64,000 nucleotides of DNA. It comes from Octopus vulgaris. Taxonomy: Eukaryota. Below the pieces are notes generated by a model. The model saw only the letters and a list, made by a program, of their open reading frames with translations, ran no database searches and was not told the DNA's origin. The translations under genes and the position numbers were made by a program. Position 1 is the stretch's first letter. Each line of letters begins with the position of its first letter. The stretch is from contig OX597829.1 in the NCBI GenBank assembly GCA_951406725.2, positions 46,376,001 to 46,440,000 of the forward strand. Direction: 5' to 3'. Below are positions 5,322-50,708 of this stretch, one piece after another.

Positions 5322-5520
5322 ATCCAGACATGAAAGCACAAAAAACACAGCAACGCGAGGACGTGGAACAAATATAATATTATTGGACGCTCAGGAAAGA
5401 AGGAAAGACGGAGGGTTTAACGTTTCGAGCGGAGCTCTTCGTCGGAAACATAGGAGAAGGAAAGATCCAGAGAAGGGAAGACAGAGGAAAAAAATCGCCA
5501 ACGGTACACACGCGGTCATA
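5318..5520 (-). mobile_element. Short non-coding element with a minimal hammerhead motif
   Basis: Same family as 62415-62630 (+) and the partial copy at 4783-4866. Flanked by (TA)n and (CA)n. Confidence 0.65.
5415..5449 (-). ncRNA. Minimal type I hammerhead ribozyme-like motif (U4C variant)
   Basis: Minus strand: gttt CCGACGA a-gagc-tcc-gctc GAAA cg TT aaac. Stem I gttt/aaac, stem II gagc/gctc, palindromic AACGTT stem III. Confidence 0.55.
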
Positions 5521-14686: not shown

Positions 14687-15102
<416 letters not shown>

Positions 15103-15645: not shown

Positions 15646-15885
15646 TCTAATTAATGAAACAAGTAGAATGTAGAAGTTCTTCATGCATACATACATAACA
15701 TACATACATAGTTACATACATATATTCTTACATGCATACATTTATACATACATAATACATACATATACGCATGCATGCATACATACACTATCACATACAT
15801 ACATGTATACATACATGCATTCGTACCAACATTCATACATACATATATGCATATATACATACATATATGCATTCATAATTAAATA

Positions 15886-16527
15886 TACAATACACATTGT
15901 GTACAGGACACCAATGAATGAAAATACGTAAACACACGAGAGAAAACTAAAAGACAAAATACTAAAAAGACGATATCTCCTCATCAATTGTCGACTGTTT
16001 ATTACTCCTATTTCGTGCTTTTAATGACAAAATAGGGCAACTTCATAAGACAGCAGCATCCAGAATTTTTTTAAATATAAAGTACATGGAGAGTTAGGGC
16101 TTCGAACGAACAAACAACGACAGAGTGGACGTACAGAGTAGACACAATCGACGAAGACGAACGTTAAGGGACGTTAAAGATAGAGGAATTGTAATGGGAG
16201 GAAATTTTCAATGAAATAGAATAATTAGAAGAGAAGAAAATAGTCGAGGAAAAATTTCGGAATCTGAGAGAAATGACGTCCAGCCTAATGGACGTCAAGT
16301 ACAGAAAAGACAGAGGCAAGAGAAATGGCCTGTAGTCACGTGTGAGTAACAGAGGCAAAGTGGAAGAGGGACAAGGGAGAGGATGAGGGAAAGATGACAA
16401 AAGGAGTGAGGAGAAGGGACTAGGAGTGACAGATAGTAGGAAGCGAAAGAAAGACAGATAGGGAATAGCAAAGCAGGTTATAGTGGGTTAGAGAGAAAAA
16501 GCACAAAAGAGCGTGCAGTCGCAGAAA
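15886..16527 (-). mobile_element. Penelope/retrozyme-like non-coding element with a degenerate hammerhead; its end resembles the satellite monomer
   Basis: Minus strand 15994-16054 reads gctgt CTTATGA agttgc..gcac GAAA taggag TA. 15890-15968 resembles the 85-bp satellite unit. Confidence 0.5.
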
Positions 16528-17058
16528 TCTCTATATATAAAACTGTAGTTGTGTGAGTGTCTGTCTCCTACGATTTAGATTCCTAACTACTCCCACATTT
16601 TGCGGTGCAGTTTAACCAACTTCGGGTATCTTATAGTCGTGATTCATATCGAGCCCGTCTGGCTATTAGCGCGCGTCTGGCTATTAGCGCGCGTCTACGA
16701 TGAGTCTACGATTTTAAAAATAATTTAACATCATTTTTTATTCCATTTTAATGCATAATTTTTCGTGTGTCGATGGCGGCGGAGTTGGCGTCCATGGTCA
16801 CACCTGCACCTGTTTGCTTCTCCCCCTTCTTCCCTCCCTCGTGAAGCTGTGGGGAAGGGAGTGTAAAGAAATAAACGTCGTAAAGCGTTGTCAAGGAGAC
16901 CAGCGTTCTTTTAGAACAACGACTTCATGGCTTGAAGACACCAAAACAGAAATGGCTAAGAAAGCCCGAATTGGCATCTATAAGGGAAGTAACTCTCTAA
17001 AAATGCTTATATAGTTATTTCCCTTACAAACCCGAGCAACGCCGGGCGATACTGCTAG
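16528..17058 (+). mobile_element. Non-autonomous Helitron, family 1, long form
   Basis: A|TCTCTATATATAAAA ... hairpin, CTAG|T. Confidence 0.85.
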
Positions 17059-17062
17059 TTAT

Positions 17063-17178
17063 ATGTAAATGTATTAACATACTGTTGTCAAGGCAGTGTG
17101 GCGTTCGATTATGAATAAATAAAAAAAATACACAGTAAGTACAGTACATCACCAACGAGTGAAAAATACGTAAACACC
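17063..17178 (+). repeat. Left inverted arm bounding the satellite
   Basis: Its reverse complement matches the last monomer plus unique flank (to 27440) and also the first monomer at 17181-17230. Confidence 0.8.
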
Positions 17179-17179
17179 C

Positions 17180-19039
17180 GTGTGTTTACGTATTTTTCTC
17201 ACGTTGGTGATGTCCTGTACTTATTCTGTATGTTTTTGGTATTTTGAGCTGTAATCATCTCTCGTGTGCTTACGTATTTTTCTCACGTTGGTGATGTCCT
17301 GTACTTATTCTGTATGTTTTTTGGTATTTTGAGCTGTACTCATCTCTCGTGTGCTTATGTATTTTTCACTCGCTGGTGATGTCCTGTATTCATTGTGTAT
17401 GTTTTTTGGTATTTTGAGCTGTACTCATCTCTCGTGTGCTTATGTATCTTTCTCACGTTGGTGATGTCCTGTATTCATTGTGTATGTTTTTTTGTATTTT
17501 GAGCTGTACTCATCTCTCGTGTGCTTATGTATTTTTCTCACGTTGGTGATGTCCTGTACTTATTCTGTATGTTTCTGGTATTTTGAGCTGTACTCATCTC
17601 TCGTGTGCTTATGTATTTTTCTCACGTTGGTGATGTCCTGTACTTATTCTGTATGTTTTTTGGTATTTTGAGCTGTACTCATCTCTCGTGTGCTTATGTA
17701 TTTTTCACTCGCTGGTGATGTCCTGTACTTATTCTGTATGTTTTTTGGTATTTTGAGCTGTACTCATCTCTCGTGTGCTTATGTATTTTTCACTCCCTGG
17801 TGATGTCCTGTATTCATTGTGTATGTTTTTTTGTATTTTGAGCTGTACTCATCTCTCGTGTGCTTATGTATTTTTCACTCGCTGGTGATGTCCTGTACTT
17901 ATTCTGTATGTTTTTTGGTATTTTCAGCTGTACTCATCTCTCGTGTGCTTGTGTCTCATTTTTCTCACGTTGGTGATGTCCTGTACTTATTCTGTATGTT
18001 TTTTGGTATTTTGAGCTGTACTCATCTCTCGTGTGCTTATGTATTTTTTCACGTTGGTGATGTCCTGTACTTATTCTGTATGTTTTTTGGTATTTTGAGC
18101 TGTACTCATCTCTCGTGTGCTTATGTATTTTTCACTCGCTGGTGATGTCCTGTATTCATTGTGTATGTTTTTTTGTATTTTGAGCTGTACTCATCTCTCG
18201 TGTGCTTATGTATTTTTCACTCGCTGGTGATCTCCTGTACTTATTCTGTATGTTTTTTGTATTTTGAGCTGTACTCATCTCTCGTTTGCTTATGTATTTT
18301 TCACTCGCTGGTGATGTCCTGTACTTATTCTGTATGTTTTTTGGTATTTTGAGCTGTACTCATCTCTCATGTGCTTATGTATTTTTCACTCGCTGGTGAT
18401 GTCCTGTATTCATTGTGTATGTTTTTTGGTATTTTGAGCTGTACTCATCTCTCGTGTGCTTATGTATTTTTCTCACGTTGGTGATGTCCTGTACTTATTC
18501 TGTATGTTTTTTTGTATTTTGAGCTGTACTCATCTCTCGTGTGCATATGTATTTTTCTCACGTTGGTGATGTCCTGTACTTATTCTGTATGTTTTTTTGT
18601 ATTTTGAGCTGTACTCATCTCTCGTGTGCTTATGTATTTTTCACTCGCTGGTGATGTCCTGTATTCATTGTGTATGTTTTTTGGTATTTTGAGCTGTACT
18701 CATCTCTCGTGTGCTTATGTATTTTTCTCACTGTTGGTGATGTCCTGTATTCATTGTGTATGTTTTTTTGTATTTTGAGCTGTACTCATCTCTCGTGTGC
18801 TTATGTATTTTTCTCACGTTGGTGATGTCCTGTACTTATTCTGTATGTTTTTTGGTATTTTGAGCTGTACTCATCTCTCGTGTGCTTATGTATTTTTCAC
18901 TCGCTGGTGATGTCCTGTATTCATTGTGTATGTTTTTTCATATTTTGAGCTGTACTCATCTCTCGTGTGCTTATGTATTTTTCTCACGTTGGTGATGTCC
19001 TGTACTTATTCTGTATGTTTTTTGGTATTTTGAGCTGTA
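17180..19039 (+). repeat. 85-bp tandem satellite, block 1 (~22 units)
   Basis: gtgatgtcct recurs at 17291, 17376 and 17461, a period of 85. Confidence 0.95.
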
Positions 19040-20470
19040 ATGCATGCATACATACACTATCACATACATACATGTATACATACATGCATTCGTACCAACA
19101 TTCATACATACATATATGCATATATACATACATATATGCATTCATAATTAAATATACAATACACATTGTGTACAGGACACCAATGAATGAAAATACGTAA
19201 ACACACGAGAGAAAACTAAAAGACAAAATACTAAAAAGACGATATCTCCTCATCAATTGTCGACTGTTTATTACTCCTATTTCGTGCTTTTAATGACAAA
19301 ATAGGGCAACTTCATAAGACAGCAGCATCCAGAATTTTTTTAAATATAAAGTACATGGAGAGTTAGGGCTTCGAACGAACAAACAACGACAGAGTGGACG
19401 TACAGAGTAGACACAATCGACGAAGACGAACGTTAAGGGACGTTAAAGATAGAGGAATTGTAATGGGAGGAAATTTTCAATGAAATAGAATAATTAGAAG
19501 AGAAGAAAATAGTCGAGGAAAAATTTCGGGATCTGAGAGAAATGACGTCCAGCCTAATGGACGTCAAGTACAGAAAAGACAGAGGCAAGAGAAATGGCCT
19601 GTAGTCACGTGTGAGTAACAGAGGCAAAGTGGAAGATGTCCTGTATTCATTGTGTATGTTTTTTTATATTTTGAGGGAAAGATGACAAAAGGAGTGAGGA
19701 GAAGGGACTAGGAGTGACAGATAGTAGGGAGCGAAAGAAAGACAGATAGGGAATAGCAAAGCAGGTTATAGTGGGTTAGAGAGAAAAAGCAGAAAACAGC
19801 GTGCAGTCGCAGAAATCTATATATATAAAACTGTAGTTGTGTGAGTGTCTGTCTCCTACGATTTAGATTCCTAACTACTCCCACATTTTGCGGTGCAGTT
19901 TAACCAACTTCGGGTATCTTATAGTCGTGATTCATATCGATCCCGTGTCTGGCTATTAGCGCGCGTCTGGCTATTAGCGCGCGTCTACGATGAGTCTGTA
20001 CGATTTTAAAAATAATTTAACATCATTTTTTATTCCATTTAATGCATAATTTTTCGTGTGTCGATGGCGGCGGAGTTGGCGTCCATGGTCACACCTGCAC
20101 CTGTTTGCTTCTCCCCTTCTTCCCTCCTCTCGTGAAGCTGTGGGGGAAGGGAGTGTAAAGAAATAAACGTCGTAAAGCATTGTCAAGGAGACCAGCGTTC
20201 TTTTAGAACAACGACTTCATGGCTTGAAGACACCAAAACAGAAATGGCTAAGAAAGCCTGAATTGAGCATCTATAAGGAAGTAACTCTCTAAAAATGCTT
20301 ATATAGTTATTTCCCTTACAAACCCGAGCAACGCCGGGCGATACTGCTAGTTATATGTAAATGTATTAACATACTGTTGTCAAGGCAGTGTGGCGTTCGA
20401 TTATGAATAAATAAAAAAAATACACAGTAAGTACAGTACATCACCAACGAGTGAAAAATACGTAAACACC
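19040..20470 (+). repeat. Near-identical tandem copy of 15772-17179, including the Helitron at 19816-20350 and a second left arm
   Basis: The sequence restarts at tgcatgcatacatacactatcac, an offset of about 3.27-3.29 kb. Confidence 0.9.
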
Positions 20471-23400
20471 CGTGTGTTTACGTATTTTTCTCACGTTGGT
20501 GATGTCCTGTACTTATTCTGTATGTTTTTGGTATTTTGAGCTGTAATCATCTCTTGTGTGCTTATGTATTTTTCTCACGTTGGTGATGTCCTGTACTTAT
20601 TCTGTATGTTTTTGGTATTTTGAGCTGTACTCATCTCTCGTGTGCTTACGTATTTTTCTCACGTTGGTGATGTCCTGTACTTATTCTGTAAATTTTTTTA
20701 TAGTATATTGAGCTGTACTCATCTCTCGTGTGCTTATGTATTTTTCACTCGCTGGTGATGTCCTGTATTCATTGTGTATGTTTTTTGGTATTTTGAGCTG
20801 TACTCATCTCTCGTGTGCTTATGTATCTTTCTCACGTTGGTGATGTCCTGTATTCATTGTGTATGTTTTTTTGTATTTTGAGCTGCACTCATCTCTCGTG
20901 TGCTTATGTATTTTTCTCACGTTGGTGATGTCCTGTACTTAATCTGTATGTTTCTGGTATTTTGAGCTGTACTCATCTCTCGTGTGCTTATGTATTTTTC
21001 TCACGTTGGTGATGTCCTGTACTTATTCTGTATGTTTTTTGGTATTTTGAGCTGTACTCATCTCTCGTGTGCTTATGTATTTTTCACTCGCTGGTGATGT
21101 CCTGTACTTATTCTGTATGTTTTTTGGTATTTTGAGCTGTACTCATCTCTCGTGTGCTTATGTATTTTTCACTCGCTGGTGATGTCCTGTATTCATTGTG
21201 TATGTTTTTTTGTATTTTGAGCTGTACTCATCTCTCGTGTGCTTATGTATTTTTCACTCGCTGGTGATGTCCTGTACTTATTCTGTATGTTTTTTGGTAT
21301 TTTGAGCTGTACTCATCTCTCGTGTGCTTATGTATTTTTCTCACGTTGGTGATGTCCTGTACTTATTCTGTATGTTTTTTGGTATTTTGAGCTGTACTCA
21401 TCTCTCGTGTGCTTATGTATTTTTCTCACGTTGGTGATGTCCTGTACTTATTCTGTATGTTTTTTTGTATTTTGAGCTGTACTCATCTCTCGTGTGCTTA
21501 TGTATTTTTCACACGCTGGTGATGTCCTGTATTCATTGTGTATGTTTTTTTGTATTTTGAGCTGTACTCATCTCTCGTGTGCTTATGTATTTTTCACTCG
21601 CTGGTGATCTCCTGTACTTATTCTGTATGTTTTTTTGTATTTTGAGCTGTACTCATCTCTCGTGTGCTTATGTATTTTTCACTCGCTGGTGATGTCCTGT
21701 ACTTATTCTGTATGTTTTTTGGTATTTTGAGCTGTACTCATCTCTCGTGTGCTTATGTATTTTTTCACTCGCTGGTGATGTCCTGTATTCATTGTGTATG
21801 TTTCTTTTGTATTTTGAGCTGTACTCATCTCTCGTGTGCTTATGTATTTTTCTCACGTTGGTGATGTCCTGTACTTATTCTGTATGTTTTTTTGTATTTT
21901 GAGCTGTACTCATCTCTCGTGTGCATATGTATTTTTCTCACGTTGGTGATGTCCTGTACTTATTCTGTATGTTTTTTTGTATTTTTGAGCTGTACTCATC
22001 TCTCGTGTGCTTATGTATTTTTCACTCGCTGGTGATGTCCTGTATTCATTGTGTATGTTTTTTGGTATTTTGAGCTGTACTCATCTCTCGTGTGCTTATG
22101 TATTTTTCTCACGTTGGTGATGTCCTGTATTCATTGTGTATGTTTTTTTGTATTTTGAGCTGTACTCATCTCTCGTGTGCTTATGTATTTTTCTCACGTT
22201 GGTGATGTCCTGTACTTATTCTGTATGTTTTTTGGTATTTTGAGCTGTACTCATCTCTCGTGTGCTTATGTATTTTTCACTCGCTGGTGATGTCCTGTAT
22301 TCATTGTGTATGTTTTTTTATATTTTGAGCTGTACTCATCTCTCGTGTGCTTATGTATTTTTCTCACGTTGGTGATGTCCTGTACTTATTCTGTATGTTT
22401 TTTGGTATTTTGAGCTGTACTCATCTCTCGTGTGCTTATGTATTTTTCTCACGTTGGTGATGTCCTGTACTTATTCTGTATGTTTTTTTGTATTTTGAGC
22501 TGTACTCATCTCTCGGGGTCTTATGTATTTTTCTCACGTTGGTGATGTCCTGTACTTATTCTGTATGTTTTTTGGTATTTTGATCTGTACTCATCTCTCG
22601 TGTGCTTATGTATTTTTCTCACGTTGGTGATGTCCTGTACTTATTCTGTATGTTTTTTGGTATTTTGAGCTGTACTCATCTCTCGTGTGCTTATGTATTT
22701 TTCACTCCCTGGTGATGTCCTGTATTCATTGTGTATGTTTTTTGTTATTTTGAGCTGTACTCATCTCTCGTGTGCTTATGTATTTTTCACTCGCTGGTGA
22801 TGTCCTGTACTTATTCTGTATGTTTTTTTGTATTTTGAGCTGTACTCATCTCTCGTGTGCTTATGTATTTTTCTCACGTTGGTGATGTCCTGTACTTATT
22901 CTGTATGTTTTTTGGTATTTTGAGCTGTACTCATCTCTCGTGTGCTTATGTATTTTTCACTCGCTGGTGATGTCCTGTATTCATTCTGTATGTTTTTTTG
23001 TATTTTGAGCTGTACTCATCTCTCGTGTGCTTATGTATTTTTCACTCGCTGGTGATGTCCTGTACTTATTCTGTATGTTTTTTTTGTATTTTGAGCTGTA
23101 CTCATCTCTCGTGTGCTTATGTATTTTTCACTCGCTGGTGATGTCCTGTACTTATTCTGTATGTTTTTTGTATTTTGAGCTGTACTCATCTCTCGTGTGC
23201 TTATGTATTTTTCACTCGCTGGTGATGTCCTGTACTTATTCTGTATGTTTTTTGGTATTTTGAGCTGTACTCATCTCTCGTGTGCTTATGTATTTTTCAC
23301 TCGCTGGTGATGTCCTGTATTCATTGTGTATGTTTCTTGGTATTTTGAGCTGTACTCATCTCTCGTGTGCTTATGTATCTTTCTCACGTTGGTGATGTCC

Positions 23401-26400
23401 TGTATTCATTGTGTATGTTTTTTTGTATTTTGAGCTGTACTCATCTCTCGTGTGCTTATGTATTTTTCTCACGTTGGTGATGTTCTGTACTTATTGTGTA
23501 TGTTTTTTTGTATTTTGAGCTGTACTCATCTCTCGTGTGCTTATCTATTTTTCACTCGCTGGTGATGTCCTGTATTCATTGTGTATGTTATTTTGTATTT
23601 TGAGCTGTACTCATCTCTCGTGTGCTTATGTATTTTTCTCACGTTGGTGATGTCCTGTACTTATTCTGTATGTTTTTTGGTATTTTGAGCTGTACTCATC
23701 TCTCGTGTGCTTATGTATTTTTCACTCGCTGGTGATGTCCTGTACTTATTCTGTATGTTTTTGGTATTTTGAGCTGTACTCATCTCTCGTGTGCTTATGT
23801 ATTTTTCTCACGCTGGTGATGTCCTGTACTTATTCTGTATGTTTTTTTGTATTTTGAGCTGTACTCATCTCTCGTGTGCTTATGTATTTTTCACTCGCTG
23901 GTGATGTCCTCTACTTATTCTGTATGTTTGTTTGTATTTTGAGCTGTACTAATCTCTCGTGTGCTTATGTATTTTTCACTCGCTGGTGATGTCCTGTATT
24001 CATTGTGTATGTTTTTTTGTATTTTGAGCTGTACTCATCTCTCGTGTGCTTATGTATTTTTCACTCGCTGGTGATGTCCTGTACTTATTCTGTATGTTTT
24101 TTTTGTATTTTGAACTGTACTCATCTCTCGTGTGCTTATGTATTTTTCACTCGCTGGTGATGTCCTGTACTTATTCTGTATGTTTTTTGGTATTTTGAGC
24201 TGTACTCATCTCTCGTGTGCTTATGTATTTTTCACTCGCTGGTGATGTCCTGTATTCATTGTGTATGTTTTTTGGTATTTTGAGCTGTATCTCTCGTGTG
24301 CTCTTTCTCACGTCTGTCCTGTATTCATTGTGTATGTTTTTTGTATTTTGGCTCGTGTGCTTATGTATCTTTCTCACGTTGGTGATGTCCTGTATTCATT
24401 GTGTATGTTTTTTTGTATTTTGAGCTGTACTCATCTCTCGTGTGCTTATGTATTTTTCTCACGTTGGTGATGTCCTGTACTTATTCTGTATGTTTTTTTG
24501 TATTTTGAGCTGTTCTCATCTCTCGTGTGCTTATGTATTTTTCACTCGCTGTTGATGTCCTGTATTCATTGTGTATGTTTTTTTATATTTTGAGCTGTAC
24601 TCATCTCTCGTGTGCTTATGTATTTTTCTCACGTTGGTGATGTCCTGTACTTATTCTGTATGTTTTATGGTATTTTGAGCTGTACTCATCTCTCGTGTGC
24701 TTATGTATTTTTCTCAAGTTGGTGATGTCCTGTACTTATTCTGTATGTTTTTTTGTATTTTGAGCTGTACTCATCTCTCGTGTGCTTATGTATTTTTCTC
24801 ACGTTGGTGATGTCCTGTACTTATTCTGTATGTTTTTTGGTATTTTGAGCTGTACTCATCTCTCGTGTGCTTATGTATTTTTCACTCGCTGGTGATGTCC
24901 TGTACTTATTCTGTATGTTTTTGGTATTTTGAGCTGTACTCATCTCTCGTGTGCTTATGTATTTTTCAATCGCTGGTGATGTCCTCTACTTATTCTGTAT
25001 GTTTTTTTGTATTTTGAGCTGTACTCATCTCTCGTGTGCTTATGTATTTTTCACTCGCTGGTGATGTCCTCTATTCATTCTGTATGTTTGTTTGTATTTT
25101 GAGCTGTACTCATCTCTCGTGTGCTTATGTATTTTTCACTCGCTGGTGATGTCCTGTATTCATTGTGTATGTTTTTTTGTATTTTGAGCTGTACTCATCT
25201 CTCGTGTGCTTATGTATTTTTCACTCGCTGGTGATGTCCTGTACTTCATTCTGTATGTTTTTTTGGTATTTTGAGCTGTACTCATCTCTCGTGTGCTTAT
25301 GTATTTTTCTCACGTTGGTGATGTCCTGTACTTATTCTGTATGTTTTTTGGTATTTTGAGCTGTACTCATCTCTCGTGTGCTTATGTATTTTTCACTCCC
25401 TGGTGATGTCCTGTATTCATTGTGTATGTTTTTTGTTATTTTGAGCTGTACTCATCTCTCGTGTGCTTATGTATTTTTCACTCGCTGGTGATGTCCTGTA
25501 TTCATTGTGTATGTTTTTTTGTATTTTGAGCTGAACTCATCTCTCGTGTGCTTATGTATTTTTCACTCCCTGGTGATGTCCTGTATTCATTGTGTATGTT
25601 TTTTGGTATTTTGAGCTGTACTCATCTCTCGTGTGCTTATGTATCTTTCTCACTCGCTGGTGATGTCCTGTATTCATTCTGTATGTTTTTTGGTATTTTG
25701 AGCTGTACTCATCTCTCGTGTGCTTATGTATTTTTCTCACGTTGGTGATGTCCTGTACTTATTCTGTATGTTTTTTTGTATTTTGAGCTGTACTCATCTC
25801 TCGTGTGCTTATGTATTTTTCACTCGCTGGTGATGTCCTGTATTCATTGTGTATGTTTTTTGGTATTTTGAGCTGTACTCATCTCTCGTGTGCTTATGTA
25901 TTTTTCTCACGTTGGTGATGTCCTGTACTTATTCTGTATGTTTTTTGTATTTTGAGCTGTACTCATCTCTCGTGTGCTTATGTATTTTTCACTCGCTGGT
26001 GATGTCCTGTATTCATTGTGTATGTTTTTTGTTATTTTGAGCTGTACTCATCTCTCGTGTGCTTATGTATCTTTCTCACTGTTGGTATGTCCTGTATTCA
26101 TTGTGTATGTTTTTTGTATTTTGAGCTGTACTCATCTCTCGTGTGCTTATGTATTTTTCTCACGTTGGTGATGTCCTGTACTTATTCTGTATGTTTTTTG
26201 GTATTTTGAGCTGTACTCATCTCTCGTGTGCTTATGTATTTTTCACTCGCTGGTGATGTCCTGTATTCATTGTGTATGTTTTTTGGTATTTTGAGCTGTA
26301 CTCATCTCTCGTGTGCTTATGTATTTTTCACACGTTGGTTGATGTCCTGTACTTATTCTGTATGTTTTTTGGTATTTTGAGCTGTACTCATCTCTCGTGT

Positions 26401-27380
26401 GCTTATGTATTTTTCACTCGCTGGTGATGTCCTCTACTTCATTCTGTATGTTTTTTTGGTATTTTGAGCTGTACTCATCTCTCGTGTGCTTATGTATTTT
26501 TCACTCGCTGGTGATGTCCTGTACTTATTCTGTATGTTTTTTGGTATTTTGAGCTGTACTCATCTCTCGTGTGCTTATGTATTTTTCACTCGCTGGTGAT
26601 GTCCTGTACTTATTATGTATGATTTTTGTATTTTGAGCTGTACTCATCTCTCGTGTGCTTATGTATTTTTCACTCGCTGGTAATGTCCTGTATTCATTGT
26701 GTATGTTTTTTTGTATTTTGAGCTGTACTCATCTCTCGTGTGCTTATGTATTTTTCACTCGCTGGTGATGTCCTGTACTTATTCTGTATGTTTTTTGTAT
26801 TTTGAGCTGTACTCATCTCTCGTGTGCTTATGTATTTTTCACTCGCTGTTGATGTCCTGTACTTATTCTGTATGTTTTTTTGTATTTTGAGCTGTACTCA
26901 TCTCTCGTGTGCTTATGTATTTTTCACTCGCTGGTGATGTCCTCTACTTATTCTGTATGTTTTTTGGTATTTTGAGCTGTACTCATCTCTCGTGTGCTTA
27001 TGTATTTTTCACTCGCTGGTGATGTCCTGTACTTATTATGCATGTTTTTTTGTATTTTGAGCTGTACTCATCTCTCGTGTGCTTATGTATTTTTCACTCG
27101 CTGGTAATGTCCTGTATTCATTGTGTATGTTTTTTGGTATTTTGAGCTGTACTCATCTCTCGTGTGCTTATGTATTTTTCTCACGTTGGTGATGTCCTGT
27201 ACTTATTCTGTATGTTTTTTGTATTTTGAGCTGTACTCATCTCTCGTGTGCTTATGTATTTTTCACTCGCTGGTGATGTTCTGTACTTATTCTGTATGTT
27301 TTTTGTATTTTGAGCTGTACTCATCTCTCGTGTGCTTATGTATTTTTCACTCCCTGGTAATGTCCTGTATTCATTGTGTA
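20471..27380 (+). repeat. 85-bp tandem satellite, block 2 (~81 units)
   Basis: Continuous monomers with two diagnostic variant sites. Confidence 0.95.
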
Positions 27381-27754
27381 TAGTTTATTCATTTATAATC
27401 GAACGCGACACAGCCTTGACCACAGTAAGTTCATACATTCATACATACATGCATACATGGAGCAAAGAGGGTGCGGTTACAAATTCCATCATAGAAGGTT
27501 GCAGGGAAAGCCACCACGTGGCTTTAGATAAAGAGGGGAGACCAGCGGTTTGCTTCAAGTGGCATGCGAGCAGGAAGATAATCAACCCCGGTTGGATCAA
27601 CTGAGGGAAGGGGTCTGATGGTGAAAGACCCAATATCCCCTGAGACCATGGAAACTTTTCATTGACGATGCATTCCAGAGTATCAGTGAAATGTATCTTA
27701 AAACATTTTGCTGTTTTTTTGGGGGGAGGTGGGGATTGTCATTAATATTAATTT

Positions 27755-28344: not shown

Positions 28345-29085
28345 TTTTTCTACTCTAGGCACAAGGCCCGAAATCTTGGGGGAGGGGGCCAATAGATTAG
28401 ATCGACGCCAGTGCGTGGCTGGTACTTAATTTATCGACCCCGAAAGGATGAAAGGCAAAGTCAACCTCGGCAGAATTTGAACTCAGAACGTAGCGGCAGA
28501 CGAAATATCTATTTCTTTACTACCCACAAGGGGCTAAACACAGAGAGGACAAACAAGGACAGACACATTGATTAAGTCGATTATATCGACCCCAGTGCGT
28601 AACTGGTACTTAATTTATCGAGTCCGAAAGGATGAAAGGCAAAGTCGACCTCGGCGGAATTTGAACTCAGAACGTAACGATAGACGAAATATCTATTTCT
28701 TTACTACCCACAAGGGGCTAAACACAGAGAGGACAAACAAGGACAGACACATTGATTAAGTCGATTATATCGACCCCAGTGCGTAACTGGTACTTAATTT
28801 ATCGAGTCCGAAAGGATGAAAGGCAAAGTCGACCTCGGCGGAATTTGAACTCAGAACGTAACGATAGACGAAATACCTATTTCTTTACTACCCACAAGGG
28901 GCTAAACACAGAGAGGACAAACAAGGACAGACACACGCATTAAGTCGATTATCTCGACCCCACTGCGTAACTGGTACTTAATTTATCGACCCCGAAATGA
29001 TGAAAGGCAAAGTCGACCTCGGCGGAATTTGGACTCGGAACGTAACGGCAGACGAAATATCGCTAAGCATTTCGTCCGGCGTCTT
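28345..29085 (-). mobile_element. Tandem array of SINE family B (four cores, 184-bp period)
   Basis: Near-identical units start 184 bp apart (28568 and 28752). Confidence 0.85.
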
Positions 29086-33997: not shown

Positions 33998-34109
33998 CAT
34001 ATAGAGATAGATAGATAGATAAAACTTACTTGTAAACAGATGCGTTGCGTCCCATCATATAATGATATAAATAATATATATATATATGCATATATACACA
34101 CATACATGT

Positions 34110-34315
34110 ACAGCGAGATTGTGTCTTGTCCCTACATTTGAAACGCGGAGTAGATAAAACAGGGGACAACTGACGAAGGCGATGTTCTTTATGTTGCATG
34201 TATCGTTTTCCTATTTCTTTCTTTCGTTGTTCGAAAAAAAGTTCACTTTCCATGCTTTTGTTTTTTATGTTCTCCTTTCGCATTTTGTTCACGTTTCTTT
34301 GACGTCCTGTACATA
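34110..34315 (+). mobile_element. Relative of the 15886-16080 element
   Basis: GAAACGCGGAGTAGATAAAACAGGGGACAACTGACGAAGG parallels GAAATAGGAGTAATAAACAGTCGACAATTGATGAGG. Both end near GTCCTGTAC. Confidence 0.45.
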
Positions 34316-43625: not shown

Positions 43626-43938
43626 AGCTTATATTATATAAAAATATATTTTACTTTTGAACAAAAAAAAATTTTCACCAAATATGAAAAACTTGAAACA
43701 CATTTGGAATATATGCGTATAAGTGTGCTCGCGTATACGTCCATATATCTATATATGTCTGCCTGAGTTATTCTTTATGCTCCTTCTCTCCCCCCTCTCT
43801 CTCTCTCTCGAATCATCAAGCTTCACAAAGATTCACGTATTTGTCCTCTACATACACACACACTCACAGATACGTACACATAAGAACATAAGCATGCAGA
43901 AACGTTATAAAACCTCATGGAGATATTAAGCAATATAA

Positions 43939-44546
43939 TCTTTATATATAAAAGAGAGGTTGTGTGCTGTCTGTCTCCTACGATTTAGATTCCTAACTAC
44001 TCCCACATTTTGCGGTGCAGTTTAACCAAAACCGGGTATCTTATAGTCGTGATTCATATCGAGCCCTTCTGGGTATTAGCGCGCGTCTACAATGAGTCTA
44101 CGATTTAAAAAAATTTTACCATAATTTTTTTTCCATTTTAATGCATTTTTTCGCTATTATATAAGGGAAGTAACTCTCTAAAAATATCTACGATGAGTCA
44201 ACGATTTAAAAAAAAAATTACCATAATTTTGTTTCCATTTTGAATGCATTTTTTCGCTATTATATAAGGGAAGTAACTCTCTAAAAATGTGTACGATGAG
44301 TCAACGATTTAAAAAAAAATTTACCATAATTTTTTTTCTATTTTAATGCATTTTATTCGCTATTATATAAGGGAAGTAACTCTCTAAAAATGTCTACGAT
44401 GAGTCAACGATTTAAAAAAAAAAATTACCATAATTTTTTTTCCATTTTTAATGCATTTTTTTGCTATTTTTGGGCTATAACTCTCTAAAAATGCTTATAT
44501 AGTTATTTCCCTTACAAACCCGAGCAACGCCGGGCGATACTGCTAG
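43939..44546 (+). mobile_element. Non-autonomous Helitron, family 1, four ~100-bp internal units
   Basis: TC..CTAG termini; repeated ctacgatgagtcaacgattt..aagggaagtaactctctaaaaat. Confidence 0.85.
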
Positions 44547-45255
44547 TTAAGCAATATAACATCTATTAAAATTGCTTAGTCGTATTATGCTTTTCTTATT
44601 AGATTCGTCTACTGATGAAATTGCCGAAACTACAAACACCTCCGTGATCGTCAATGATAACTACTTTTCTTTTTTTTTTTTTTCTTTTTTTTTGTAATCT
44701 TCTTTTTCGTTTATCTTATAATTTGGATAGAAACGAAGAAAACTAAATATATTCAGTGTCATTTCTCCAATTGTTACTCTTAAAACCCTGACTTCTAAGA
44801 AAACTAATTTGTGCCTGCTAACTCCAACAACGTCTCAGGTACAATAACTACGAAACAATAACTACGCGCAAACCGTTCTTTCTATTTTCGGCTCGACTGA
44901 ACTCAATCCAAAGATCACTCATAAAATGAAGAATTTCTAATGTGAATTGCAACGATTCTATTGGATATCGGTATTCCTCATTTCTGAGTTCCACTAACCC
45001 CCAAAAGAATTTATTTCTCCGACGCTGCTTAACTTCCAACATTTGAGACACACAATCACATAACATTTCCAACCTGTAAATTGTTTCGTAAATTGAAACA
45101 AAATTACACACACGTGCTCGCGTTCACAAATACACTTGTGTGCATATATGTGTGTGTGTATATATGTGTATATATATATATACGTACGTACACGTATATA
45201 TACACATATATACACGTATGTACACATATATACACATATCATTATTAGTATTGTT

Positions 45256-45487: not shown

Positions 45488-45536
<49 letters not shown>

Positions 45537-45537
45537 C

Positions 45538-45931
45538 GTAGTTTTATTTTTATAGCGTGCTTTCACTTCCCCACCGAGCGCAGCTCTGTGTGCCTTGGGT
45601 ATGTGCTGTGATTTGTTGTGATGCTCTGATGGTTATTGTATGGAAAGTGTTCTGCGTAGGATGTGTGCAGTGCCTAGTAGTGAAATTTTCTGTATGTTAT
45701 ATGTGTTTGTGAGTCCTGGTGTTTTTGTTATGTATTTGTCTAAAACACCAGGATTTACAAACACACATAACATAGAGAAAATTTGCACTACTAGGCACTG
45801 CACACATCCTACGCAGAACACTTTCCATACAATAAACATCAGAGCATCACAACAAATCACAGCACATACCCAAGGCACACAGAGCTGCGCTCGGTAGTGA
45901 AGTGAAAGCACGCTATAAAAATAAAACTACT
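45538..45931. mobile_element. Head-to-head inverted pair of R4/Dong-like LINE 3' ends in (TAA)n
   Basis: Two ~190-bp arms. The left arm encodes KTPGLTNTYNIQKISLLGTAHILRRTLSIQ*. Each arm ends in an (AAT)n tract. Confidence 0.8.
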
Positions 45932-46343
<412 letters not shown>

Positions 46344-46999: not shown

Positions 47000-47781
47000 G
47001 AAGCATCTTCATCCGATGGGAAAAGCTCAGAAATATGGAGCATGGGTTCCCCATGCTTTAGGTGACAACAACAAAAATCAACGAGCCACAATCTCCGCTG
47101 GTTTGCTTGCCTGTCACCGCTCGACTCATGGACATTCTTTACCGAATCGTTACTGGTGACGAAAACTGGTGCTGCACATCAATATGAACCAGCGTAAGGA
47201 ATGGCTTAGCCCCGGTAAACAAGCGACACTGCGCGTGCAAAAGGATATTCACCCGCATAAAACGATGTTGTGCGTAAGGTGGGATTGGGAAGGGATTATC
47301 CATTACGAATTGCTTGTTAACGCGGAACAGATGGAACGTTCGACAGATGGAACGACTCAACACGGCTATTCAAGAGAAAAGAACTAATCGGCAGCAAGGA
47401 GTTCTTCTGCTGCACGGCAACGCTCGCCCTCAAATCGCCAATATGACCAAGGAAACCATTCAAACGCATGGGTGGGAAGTGCTTCCACACCCGCCGTACT
47501 CTCCTGATTTGGCACCAACGGATTTCCACCTCTTTCGATCTCTTTCAAATGCTATGTGCGGATTTCCGTTCAATACTGATGCAGATTTGAGAGCTTGGTT
47601 GGATCAATTTTTCGAGTCGAAATCGGGTGATTTCTAACAACGAGGTATTGAAAATCTTGTTGAACGTTGGGAAGAAGTTGTAAATAACAAGGCTGAATAC
47701 ATTATTGATTATTTGTTATTTTTTATTAAAACTTTTAAAAAAATTTAAATTTAGAAAAACGGCGGGAACTTAGTTGCTAAC

Positions 47782-49500: not shown

Positions 49501-49549
49501 TATATATACACAAATATATAAATATAATATATATATATATATATATATA

Positions 49550-50708
49550 CAAATTATTACATTATATAAAAGGGCTTAGTAAAATAAATTACTTTGCCGC
49601 ATACTGAACTCATTAGAAATAGCAGCTAAAAAACTTTTTTAAAGCTATTTCTAATACTTAAAGAAAATCTCTCTCATATAGTGTTTGCTTAACTCAACTC
49701 ACGAAAGTTTGGGGGTAAGGACATCAAAAAATCAAATGCAAAGGTTATTTGAGAACGTACGTTTCAAGATTAGTCAACACGACACTTCTATCATCAGCTC
49801 AGAAACTCCTTGGTTTGGATTTGAAAACACTGAAAGTAAGAGCATACCCTTTCGGCCTCTCATCGCTTTCGAAGATCTGCTCGTAACTAACAGTGCCAAC
49901 AAACTCAAATATGCAAGCGAATAATTTCTGTTCTCCCCTTTCCACCAGCGTGGGTTAAAATCAGCAAACACTATGCTTATTTCGGTAAAATCCGAAGCAT
50001 TAATTAGAGGCAAAGTAATTTATTTTACTAAGCCCTTTTATATAATGTAATAATTTGAATTCGCCTTAAATGGTCCCTTTGCATACTGAACACTTGGTGA
50101 AATTGATTAATAATTAATTAATTTTACCCTCAATTGTTGAAATTATAATTAATCTCCCTCTAATTAATGCTTCGGATTTTACCGAAATAAGCATAGTGTT
50201 TGCTGATTTTAACCTACGCTGGTGGAAAGGGGAGAACAGAAATTCTTCGCTTGCATATTTGAGTTTGTTGGCACTGTTAGTTACGAGCAGATCTTCGAAA
50301 GCGATGAGAGGCCGAAAGGGTATGCTCTTACTTTCAGTGTTTTCAAATCCAAAACCAAGGAGTTTCTGAGCTGATGATAGAAGTGTCGTGTTGACTAATC
50401 TTGAAACGTACGTTCTCAAATAACCTTTGCATTTGATTTTTTGATGTCCTTACCCCCAAACTTTCGTGAGTTGAGTTAAGCAAACACTATATGAGAGAGA
50501 TTTTCTTTAAGTATTAGAAATAGCTTTAAAAAAGTTTTTTAGCTGCTATTTCTAATGAGTTCAGTATGCGGCAAAGTAATTTATTTTACTAAGCCCTTTT
50601 ATATAATGTAATAATTTGAATTCGCCTTAAATGGTCCCTTTGCATACTGAACACTTGGTGAAATTGATTAATAATTAATTAATTTTACCCTCCATTGTTG
50701 AAATTATA
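49550..50708. mobile_element. Young Penelope-type inverted and direct terminal-repeat structure with hammerhead cores
   Basis: 49550-50010 is the inverse of 50157-50618. 50010-50147 is directly repeated at 50571-50708. Confidence 0.75.
50367..50418 (+). ncRNA. Hammerhead ribozyme-like motif (mirror copy at 49750-49801, minus strand)
   Basis: tgag CTGATGA tagaagtgtcgtgttgactaatctt GAAA cgtacg TT ctca. Stem I tgag/ctca; palindromic AACGTACGTT stem III. Confidence 0.6.

Follow-up and report, generated by a model that had tools for sequence, protein, structure and literature searches.

Introduction

Naiads are Penelope-like elements (PLEs) that are said to thrive without canonical hammerhead ribozymes, and for some families core halves separated by 35-50 nt, with the second on one or the other side of the first, have been reported (Craig et al. 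2021, PMC8557442). The portion of that paper drawn on here annotates these ends only as "HHR_core" and "HHR_half_core" and proposes no permuted fold for them. Hammerheads with non-circularly permuted parts, types SGC and CSG, are known from environmental sequence, namely metatranscriptome and metagenome contigs (soil DNA for CSG), and the main text of that study describes type CSG from two similar sequences (Eckert et al. 2023, PMC10085705). Here we describe an 85-bp satellite of Octopus vulgaris and a neighboring minus-strand element in a window of 64,000 nucleotides, by which we mean the whole stretch of DNA analysed (assembly GCA_951406725.2, contig OX597829.1, positions 46,376,001 to 46,440,000; coordinates below count from its first letter). 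The satellite probably arose from the end of a likely Naiad-type element with a predicted permuted hammerhead, by way of a retrotransposed seed that then grew at the DNA level.

Satellites that grow from parts of elements are an established class. DNA transposons and Helitrons are common sources of satellites, and Penelope elements are listed among the others (PMC12692304, in part). Long terminal repeat-free (non-LTR) retrozymes and hammerhead satellites of newt, schistosome and cricket are tandem repeats of a PLE-type terminal segment (PMC7229834; 10.64898/2026.07.22.740005), and the latter source proposes, in the part available, that PLE ends seed tandem repeats. Insertions of PLEs typically comprise an inverted 5'-truncated copy, a palindromic junction and a tail (PMC8557442; PMC3846280).

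Sequence homology between the satellite monomer and the element end

The element is read on the minus strand. It begins at 16527 with a pyrimidine-rich body, continues with a structured motif and closes with a monomer-like end, behind which stands a CATA microsatellite. The body (16097-16527) belongs to a dispersed family, is multi-copy in three sets of sequencing contigs (runs X1, X6 and X14), gave no protein match, and is likely the 3' untranslated region of a 5'-truncated copy. The monomer-like end (15890-15968, minus strand), which we call A-type, starts 5 nt after helix Pc of the ribozyme-like motif at 15974-16096; at 15947/15952, X1 and X6 each had 41-47 contigs over it. Beyond it lie a short and weak remnant of the tail found behind the last unit of the array (15870-15889, minus strand; local score 27 over 25 columns against 27376-27460, without shuffle control) and the (CATA)n microsatellite (15682-15877, found with Tandem Repeats Finder, TRF).

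The first-pass annotation had claimed that the reverse complement of 15890-15968 matches a satellite monomer from end to end, and this was confirmed. When aligned with the monomer at 17318-17400, 63 of 83 columns were identical (75.9%, BLAST E 2e-9), so that the segment corresponds to one entire monomer. The local score of 80 was not reached by any of 3000 dinucleotide shuffles (31.0 +/- 4.9, maximum 54), and the top score among 2322 background 90-mers was 44. Because the score lies far above both the shuffles and the background, the likeness is, on alignment grounds, homology and not T-richness. Introduction of two majority letters from other copies raised the identity to 65/83. Judged by these comparisons, the 85-bp monomer and the last 85 bases before the tail of the dispersed family share descent. 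T-rich boxes are present at both unit ends in the parent element. The neighboring 15890 copy is a sister subfamily and not the direct parent of the array.

The element and both end types are dispersed

Other copies were sought in four of 24 listed runs, in contigs of X1, X6 and X14 and in the raw reads of X23, matched to 15880-17400; none was listed as RNA, although X14 may be an RNA run. Contig depth was found in 30/30 bins of this interval in X1, X6 and X14. In X1, where contigs were counted to 128, up to 95 lay over 16066 in the ribozyme-like motif and 102 over 17145 in a second, B-type monomer-like end. The element and the monomer-type end are therefore dispersed, multi-copy sequences. A-type and B-type ends form separate multi-copy forms with few majority changes each. 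Single contigs span a monomer-like end together with the ribozyme region (X6 records 17 and 18, X1 record 2), and among the 15 joints listed one from 17177 to 16007 was present in two X1 and two X6 contigs, which shows that the satellite-type end is linked to the motif region elsewhere.

Parts of 15880-17400 occurred in 20 runs from 10 studies and four organisms, a spread for much of which a Helitron-like insert in the interval may account. Even the closest X1 contig among the matches listed had 13 differences in 257 letters, and the runs may therefore represent a related species. From the 1934 million letters of X23, which carries the same species label as X1, nine reads matched, every one of them on the Helitron-like insert; this run is probably not a bulk source of the studied genome and was set aside.

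A predicted permuted hammerhead next to the monomer-like end

On the minus strand, 16096-15974 contains the blocks of a hammerhead in a non-circular order, with the cleavage site first, then GAAA and then CUGAnGA (S-G-C, type SGC), together with extra helices. Helix Pc pairs 16096-90 with 15980-74 and encloses hairpin Pd (16088-61); Pa pairs 16060-55 with 16019-15, and Pb pairs 16054-45 with 16002-15994. Stem III is formed by 16038-32 with 16011-05 and stem I by 16030-26 with 15992-88, with GAAA at 16014-11, the core at 15987-81 reading UUGAUGA (C3 is changed in this copy), and a predicted cut after 16031. Stem I has 5/5 pairs and stem III 5/7, or 7/7 with majority letters. The distance from GAAA to core in the motif is 27-30 nt. 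Of the seven majority letters in 15974-16096 among the rows listed, six restore pairs and one lies in a loop, and together they raise the pairs from 36 to 42 of 43, whereas random changes of seven letters gained at most two pairs in 3000 sets. Pc, Pd, Pb and III are also present in an unconstrained fold with majority letters. When an optimiser was supplied with nothing but the order of the helices, it picked the same ones, with a score of 59 against 38.7 +/- 4.8 (1/7550 shuffles, majority letters). A descriptor for the S-G-C arrangement matched only this copy, its tandem duplicate and 34124-34170 in the 64 kb, and had no match in 30 shuffles of 53.8 kb.

The motif has the S-G-C order, the GAAA, a CUGAnGA-type core and the pseudoknotted stems I and III in common with type SGC of Eckert et al. 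(PMC10085705). It differs in stem II: in the described part of that work the strand immediately downstream of the core makes this stem, whereas here two strands find separate upstream partners around a hairpin. By eye, the downstream pairing reaches 3/5 (4/5 with a majority letter) as compared with 5/5 for Pa and 6-7/7 for Pc upstream. Cleavage of the octopus motif is predicted only, and C3 is changed in the window copy.

A degenerate hammerhead had been drawn at 15994-16054 by the first-pass annotation. A ribozyme-like motif does adjoin the monomer-like segment, but not in that form. The canonical hammerhead of PLE pseudo-LTRs is a minimal type I with an intact core, in which CUGAnGA is followed by stem II, GAAA and NUH. 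Read as type I, the proposed core is CUUAUGA (G5 changed), its "stem I" is helix Pb, its GAAA belongs to the permuted motif, and its stem II falls from 4/4 to 3/4 pairs with majority letters. The site was not among the type I descriptor matches in the window, and Rfam returned no hammerhead at E up to 10 in 15890-16530 (two unrelated matches), and none in the 34110 copy; over the whole window only microsatellite-driven matches appeared among 150 of 259 listed. Type II and type III readings were rejected as well, since by eye the inner GUA is not followed by a stem I hairpin, nor the core by GAAA.

A second, distant family copy is located on the plus strand at 34108-34315, with its blocks in the order U16.1 (34124), GAAA (34140) and CUGACGA (34170). 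The part at 34124-34176 has an intact CUGACGA core and a GUC site, with a predicted cut after 34125, and its stems I, II and III score 8, 4 and 6 pairs; the upstream helices are absent and the copy is likely 5'-truncated. The proposal that 34110-34315 belongs to the family was sustained for the ribozyme part (score 37 against a maximum of 35 in 2000 shuffles) and weakly for the end (46; 12/2000 shuffles), and the likeness to the monomer was not significant (33; 237/2000).

Similar predicted folds at published Naiad ends

Of the 54 published Naiad consensi (PMC8557442 File S5), 23 were read by eye over their terminal 420-490 nt; none of the assignments was computed. S-G-C order was recognized in 7/23 ends, and in six of these the helices follow one another as Pc-Pd-Pa-Pb-III-I, just as in the window element (Naiad_Obim, _Ovul, _Esco, -4_Dst, -2_Movir and -3_Chem). 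All six have an intact core, 4-6 pairs in stem I and 5-10 in stem III, and their sequences differ, with the exception of Naiad_Obim and _Ovul, which are near-identical and count as one lineage. The seventh, Lpol, has stem II downstream. C-S-G order was seen in four ends (-2_Nbra, -3_Nbra, Hpol and Smim) with intact cores, three stems of 4-9 pairs each, differing stem sequences, and a helix of 9-16 bp that joins the I and II sides. The ends of Naiad_Bfor, -1_Dst and -2_Dst have an intact CUGAnGA and long helices that match neither arrangement cleanly, possibly further layouts.

The window element also resembles Naiads in its 5'-truncated copies, the inverted copy at the 5' end, the tail, the microsatellite neighborhood and the want of a canonical hammerhead (compare the described part of PMC8557442). 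For Naiads a preference for (TA)n targets is described; the copies here abut CATA- or TA-rich microsatellites, in a window with 137 TRF rows. Endonuclease-bearing (EN+) PLEs encode a telomerase-like reverse transcriptase and a GIY-YIG endonuclease, and marks of Naiads are an N-terminal GIY-YIG, a CxC motif and a reverse transcriptase with IFD. In the 640-bp fragment no endonuclease-reverse transcriptase open reading frame (ORF) was found. The element also differs from Naiads in having no exact 12-14-mer in common with the consensi, and its tail is about 60 bp long. Among six shorter words, one 11-mer matched the Naiad_Esco motif and one 9-mer four unrelated places, which is a weak test. DNA pattern scans of viral, metagenome and genome contigs gave no matches. 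The element behaves like a Naiad end and is likely a Naiad-type PLE or a non-autonomous derivative; the link to PLEs rests on the shared RNA fold and the architecture, and we have not filed the element as a Naiad member.

Structure and growth of the array

The array is joined head-to-head to an inverted arm (17062-17180, minus strand) that consists of a 59-bp half monomer, the B-type end, and a tail of about 60 bp. A perfect hairpin with a 4-nt loop at 17179/80 forms the joint, and the fold of 17120-17240 has a z of -12.6 with none of 200 shuffles as good; the inverted 5'-truncated copy and the palindromic junction of PLE insertions are thus both present. Array 1 (17179-19039, plus strand) comprises 22 units of 85 bp and array 2 (20471-27386, plus strand) 82 anchors, and a unique tail (27387-27447, plus strand), 85% identical to the tail of the left arm, follows the last unit.

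The 104 anchors in the two blocks have a mean unit identity of 93.9%, and unit spacing is exactly 85 in 72/102 cases and 84-88 in 100/102. Element-like letters are confined to the first unit of each array (2/99 scored units). Three dimorphic sites display all four gametes in 3/3 site pairs. A tandem duplicate of 15771-19039 occupies 19040-22419 (plus strand; 96.9% identity over the flank) and contains microsatellite, element, Helitron-like insert, inverted arm and the first 23 units, 3.3 kb in all, non-satellite flank included. Its unit order matches that of the original, offsets 0-1 scoring 1741 against 1343-1672 at the other 58 offsets, and it holds one extra unit and substitutions of its own. 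No YTGANGA core was found on either strand of both arrays. The array was therefore likely amplified at the DNA level: the monomer lacks a ribozyme core, all four gametes occur, and the duplication includes flank that is not satellite.

Two irregularities were also observed. At 19635-19675 a 41-bp piece of monomer replaces about 20 bp of the duplicated element, with short matches at both joints, either through a template switch or as a polishing artefact, and two shortened units of 69 and 71 bp lie within array 2 at 24283-24354.

A retrozyme array, with a hammerhead in every tandem unit, was rejected, the unit being without a core on either strand. As compared with the retrozymes and hammerhead satellites of newt, schistosome and cricket, the unit measures 85 bp and not about 300 bp, has no ribozyme and lies downstream of one, and the parent motif is not type I. 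The satellite is more like those born from transposable elements (PMC12692304, in part), in which a part of an element grows in tandem and edge units are less homogenised. It differs from them in that seed, inverted arm, tail and sister copy stand side by side, so that the borders of the unit can be mapped on the parent. With respect to the first-pass suggestion of a PLE or retrozyme terminal segment as the source, common descent with the end of a ribozyme-bearing dispersed family and the PLE-like architecture are supported, and the retrozyme reading is not.

Discussion

The explanation that we favor, and consider rather probable, is that the satellite comes from the end of a likely Naiad-type element with a predicted permuted hammerhead, seeded by retrotransposition and enlarged at the DNA level. 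Monomer and element end go back to one ancestral sequence, and both end types, to judge from the contigs, belong to dispersed, multi-copy forms linked to the ribozyme-like region in other copies. The RNA is predicted to fold in the order cleavage site, GAAA, CUGAnGA, and intact copies should cut after 16031. In this model the strand before GAAA would pair upstream (Pa) and the strand after the core further upstream (Pc), around Pd, such that a junction replaces stem II. Reverse transcription would then have laid very short 5'-truncated copies head-to-head, leaving a half monomer and a tail on one strand and a partial tandem and a tail on the other. One PLE reverse transcriptase (RT) has been found to start internally, before the tail (PMC11167929), which would give just such a partial tandem with a tail only on the last copy. 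The partial tandem, or the T-rich boxes at the unit ends, may have fixed the period at 85 bp, and some 100 units would have been built and homogenised through unequal exchange and conversion, with one duplication of 3.3 kb. We thus infer an RNA-made seed and DNA-level growth thereafter.

A more general proposal, for which we consider the case evenly balanced, is that Naiads carry active, non-circularly permuted hammerheads at their 3' ends. Nematode and spider families would carry type CSG. Those of cnidarians, crustaceans and cephalopods would carry an SGC form that has not been described, in which stem II gives way to a helical junction. The window element would be one of the latter, and the satellite an amplified stretch from ribozyme to tail, seeded by retrotransposition. 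Should the folds cleave, a very abundant clade of animal retroelements regularly carries permuted hammerheads, which would account for the "half core" notes of Craig et al. What is new here is the permuted ribozyme. The satellite itself is a well-preserved new example and no new route, because PLE-derived satellites are already listed in reviews. In the literature search no report of a permuted hammerhead in Naiads was found, nor, by title, any on non-circular permutation in retroelements, with most subscription papers outside the search and the supplement of PMC10085705, which could include animal hits, little covered. Hammerhead variants with additional helices have been reported (PMC13725137, in part), so the junction form may have a precedent; none with an extra helix is described in the portion of PMC10162972 that was available, and PMC4209133 covers the type I minimal hammerheads of PLEs.

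Several observations weigh against the favored explanation. As regards the ribozyme, C3 is changed and position 17, at the cleavage site, is U in the 15987 copy, for which reason the ribozyme of this copy is probably dead; the state of C3 in other copies is not among the difference rows listed. The gain in folding energy from majority letters was not significant or marginal (266/3000, 333/2000 and 49/2000), the helix chain was only marginal with the window letters alone (245/7741), and descriptor thresholds and helix registers were set after motif and majority letters were known. As regards Naiads, the 23 ends are a non-random choice of cephalopod or flagged families and a few neighbors, named by file order, and 12/23 showed no clear motif by eye. 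None of six exact 12-14-mers occurred in the Naiad, Chlamys or Hydra consensi, although exact words are a weak test. The element is a 640-bp 3' fragment that gave no protein match to RT or GIY-YIG (minus-strand ORF 16167-16487 compared with longer proteins, and the plus frame with stops as X), and the 132 ORFs of the window gave no such match against Pfam, the only one above the curated cut-off being to a mariner transposase fragment. As regards the insertion, tails of about 60 bp, 85% identical, stand at both ends of the array while the PLE norm is 30-40 bp, often at one end; identity between the two inverted arms reaches only 85-86%; there was no visible target-site duplication; and the array analysis concerns a single array locus.

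The growth of the array by RNA-templated synthesis, as the first-pass annotation had thought possible, is the first alternative, and we regard it as improbable. Here the RT would have made many successive copies of the terminal 85 nt, either through template jumps or by running round a small circular RNA, and many units would have been inserted at once. The position of the array between PLE-like inverted ends, with a tail only on the last unit, would fit, as would the internal start of a PLE RT (PMC11167929, in part) and the transcription of tandem retrozymes as circles (PMC7229834, in part). However, a unit without ribozyme core offers no route to an 85-nt circle, and the period is fixed (72/102 spacings of 85, 100/102 within 84-88) whereas 5' truncation is variable. 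Moreover, the recombined variant sites, with all four gametes at 3/3 pairs, and a duplication that carries flank reveal later work at the DNA level, and the claim was not borne out in its original form. A start of several RNA-made units may still be compatible with such later work.

Somewhat less probable again is that the array represents the internal repeat of a DNA transposon, a foldback element or another kind, its inverted ends (17062-17180, and the last unit with 27387-27447) being borrowed from the repeat family and the seed having arisen without retrotransposition. The array is indeed bounded by inverted repeats, and DNA transposons and Helitrons are common satellite sources (PMC12692304, in part), but the left arm joins the array by a 4-nt loop in a snap-back-like manner, the end type of the arm is joined to the ribozyme region in other contigs, and no target-site duplication was seen. 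The presumed Helitron-like element ends at 17058 and the array begins at 17179, outside it, and a satellite of Helitron central repeats was rejected on the same ground.

To a third alternative we assign the same low probability, namely that the minus-strand element has the inverted arm as its 5' direct repeat. Without the Helitron-like insert, a retrozyme-like non-autonomous PLE would then have a single unit some 700 bp long, made up of half end, tail, body, ribozyme and end, and the inverted partner of this insertion would have given rise to the array. Removal of 16528-17058 does set tail and body end to end, and 17127-17180 and 15889-15938 form a direct repeat of 79.6%. Against this, A-type and B-type ends each occur on their own in many copies and with few majority changes, the arm resembles the array more than it does 15890, and no 16527-17059 joint was present among the 15 joints listed.

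A partial assembly artefact, with the 3.3-kb duplicate and the 41-bp patch stemming from two haplotypes or mis-polishing, is very improbable, for although the small indels of the duplicate resemble noisy-long-read leftovers and it is identical to the original over 15878-16260, it has an extra unit and substitutions of its own and the four-gamete result is independent of it, and were it an artefact one argument for DNA-level growth would fall while homology and fold would stand.

Other features of the window

As a whole the window has the look of repeat-rich animal DNA. The insertion at 16528-17058 (plus strand) is unrelated to the element and is presumably a Helitron-like non-autonomous copy, a label that we take from established Helitron end features: it starts with TC after an A, has a terminal hairpin and ends with CTAG before a T. 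Besides the one in the duplicate, seven further full or partial copies are present in the window, and loose ends behind 17059 occurred in 344 X6 contigs. Copies of this very abundant element were noted at 16528-17058, 143-1176 (two in tandem), 12230, 39862, 42155, 43937-44549 and 54869, and one copy has an internal 103-bp tandem. Between microsatellites at 14802-15100 lies what we take to be a tRNA-derived element resembling a short interspersed nuclear element.

An inverted repeat at 49547-50621, with arms of about 470 bp that are 98% complementary, carries outward-pointing type I hammerhead-like motifs at 50371 (plus) and 49797 (minus) and has the appearance of a PLE inserted head-to-head. 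At 5445 (minus) and 9413 (plus) there are also minimal type I hammerhead-like motifs, one of them with a changed core. A further inverted repeat at 45501-45967 has 189-bp arms (96% complementary), 28395-29061 consists of 3.6 tandem copies of a 184-bp unit with 94% matches, and the mariner-type transposase fragment lies at 47160-47384 (PF01359, E 9.6e-12).

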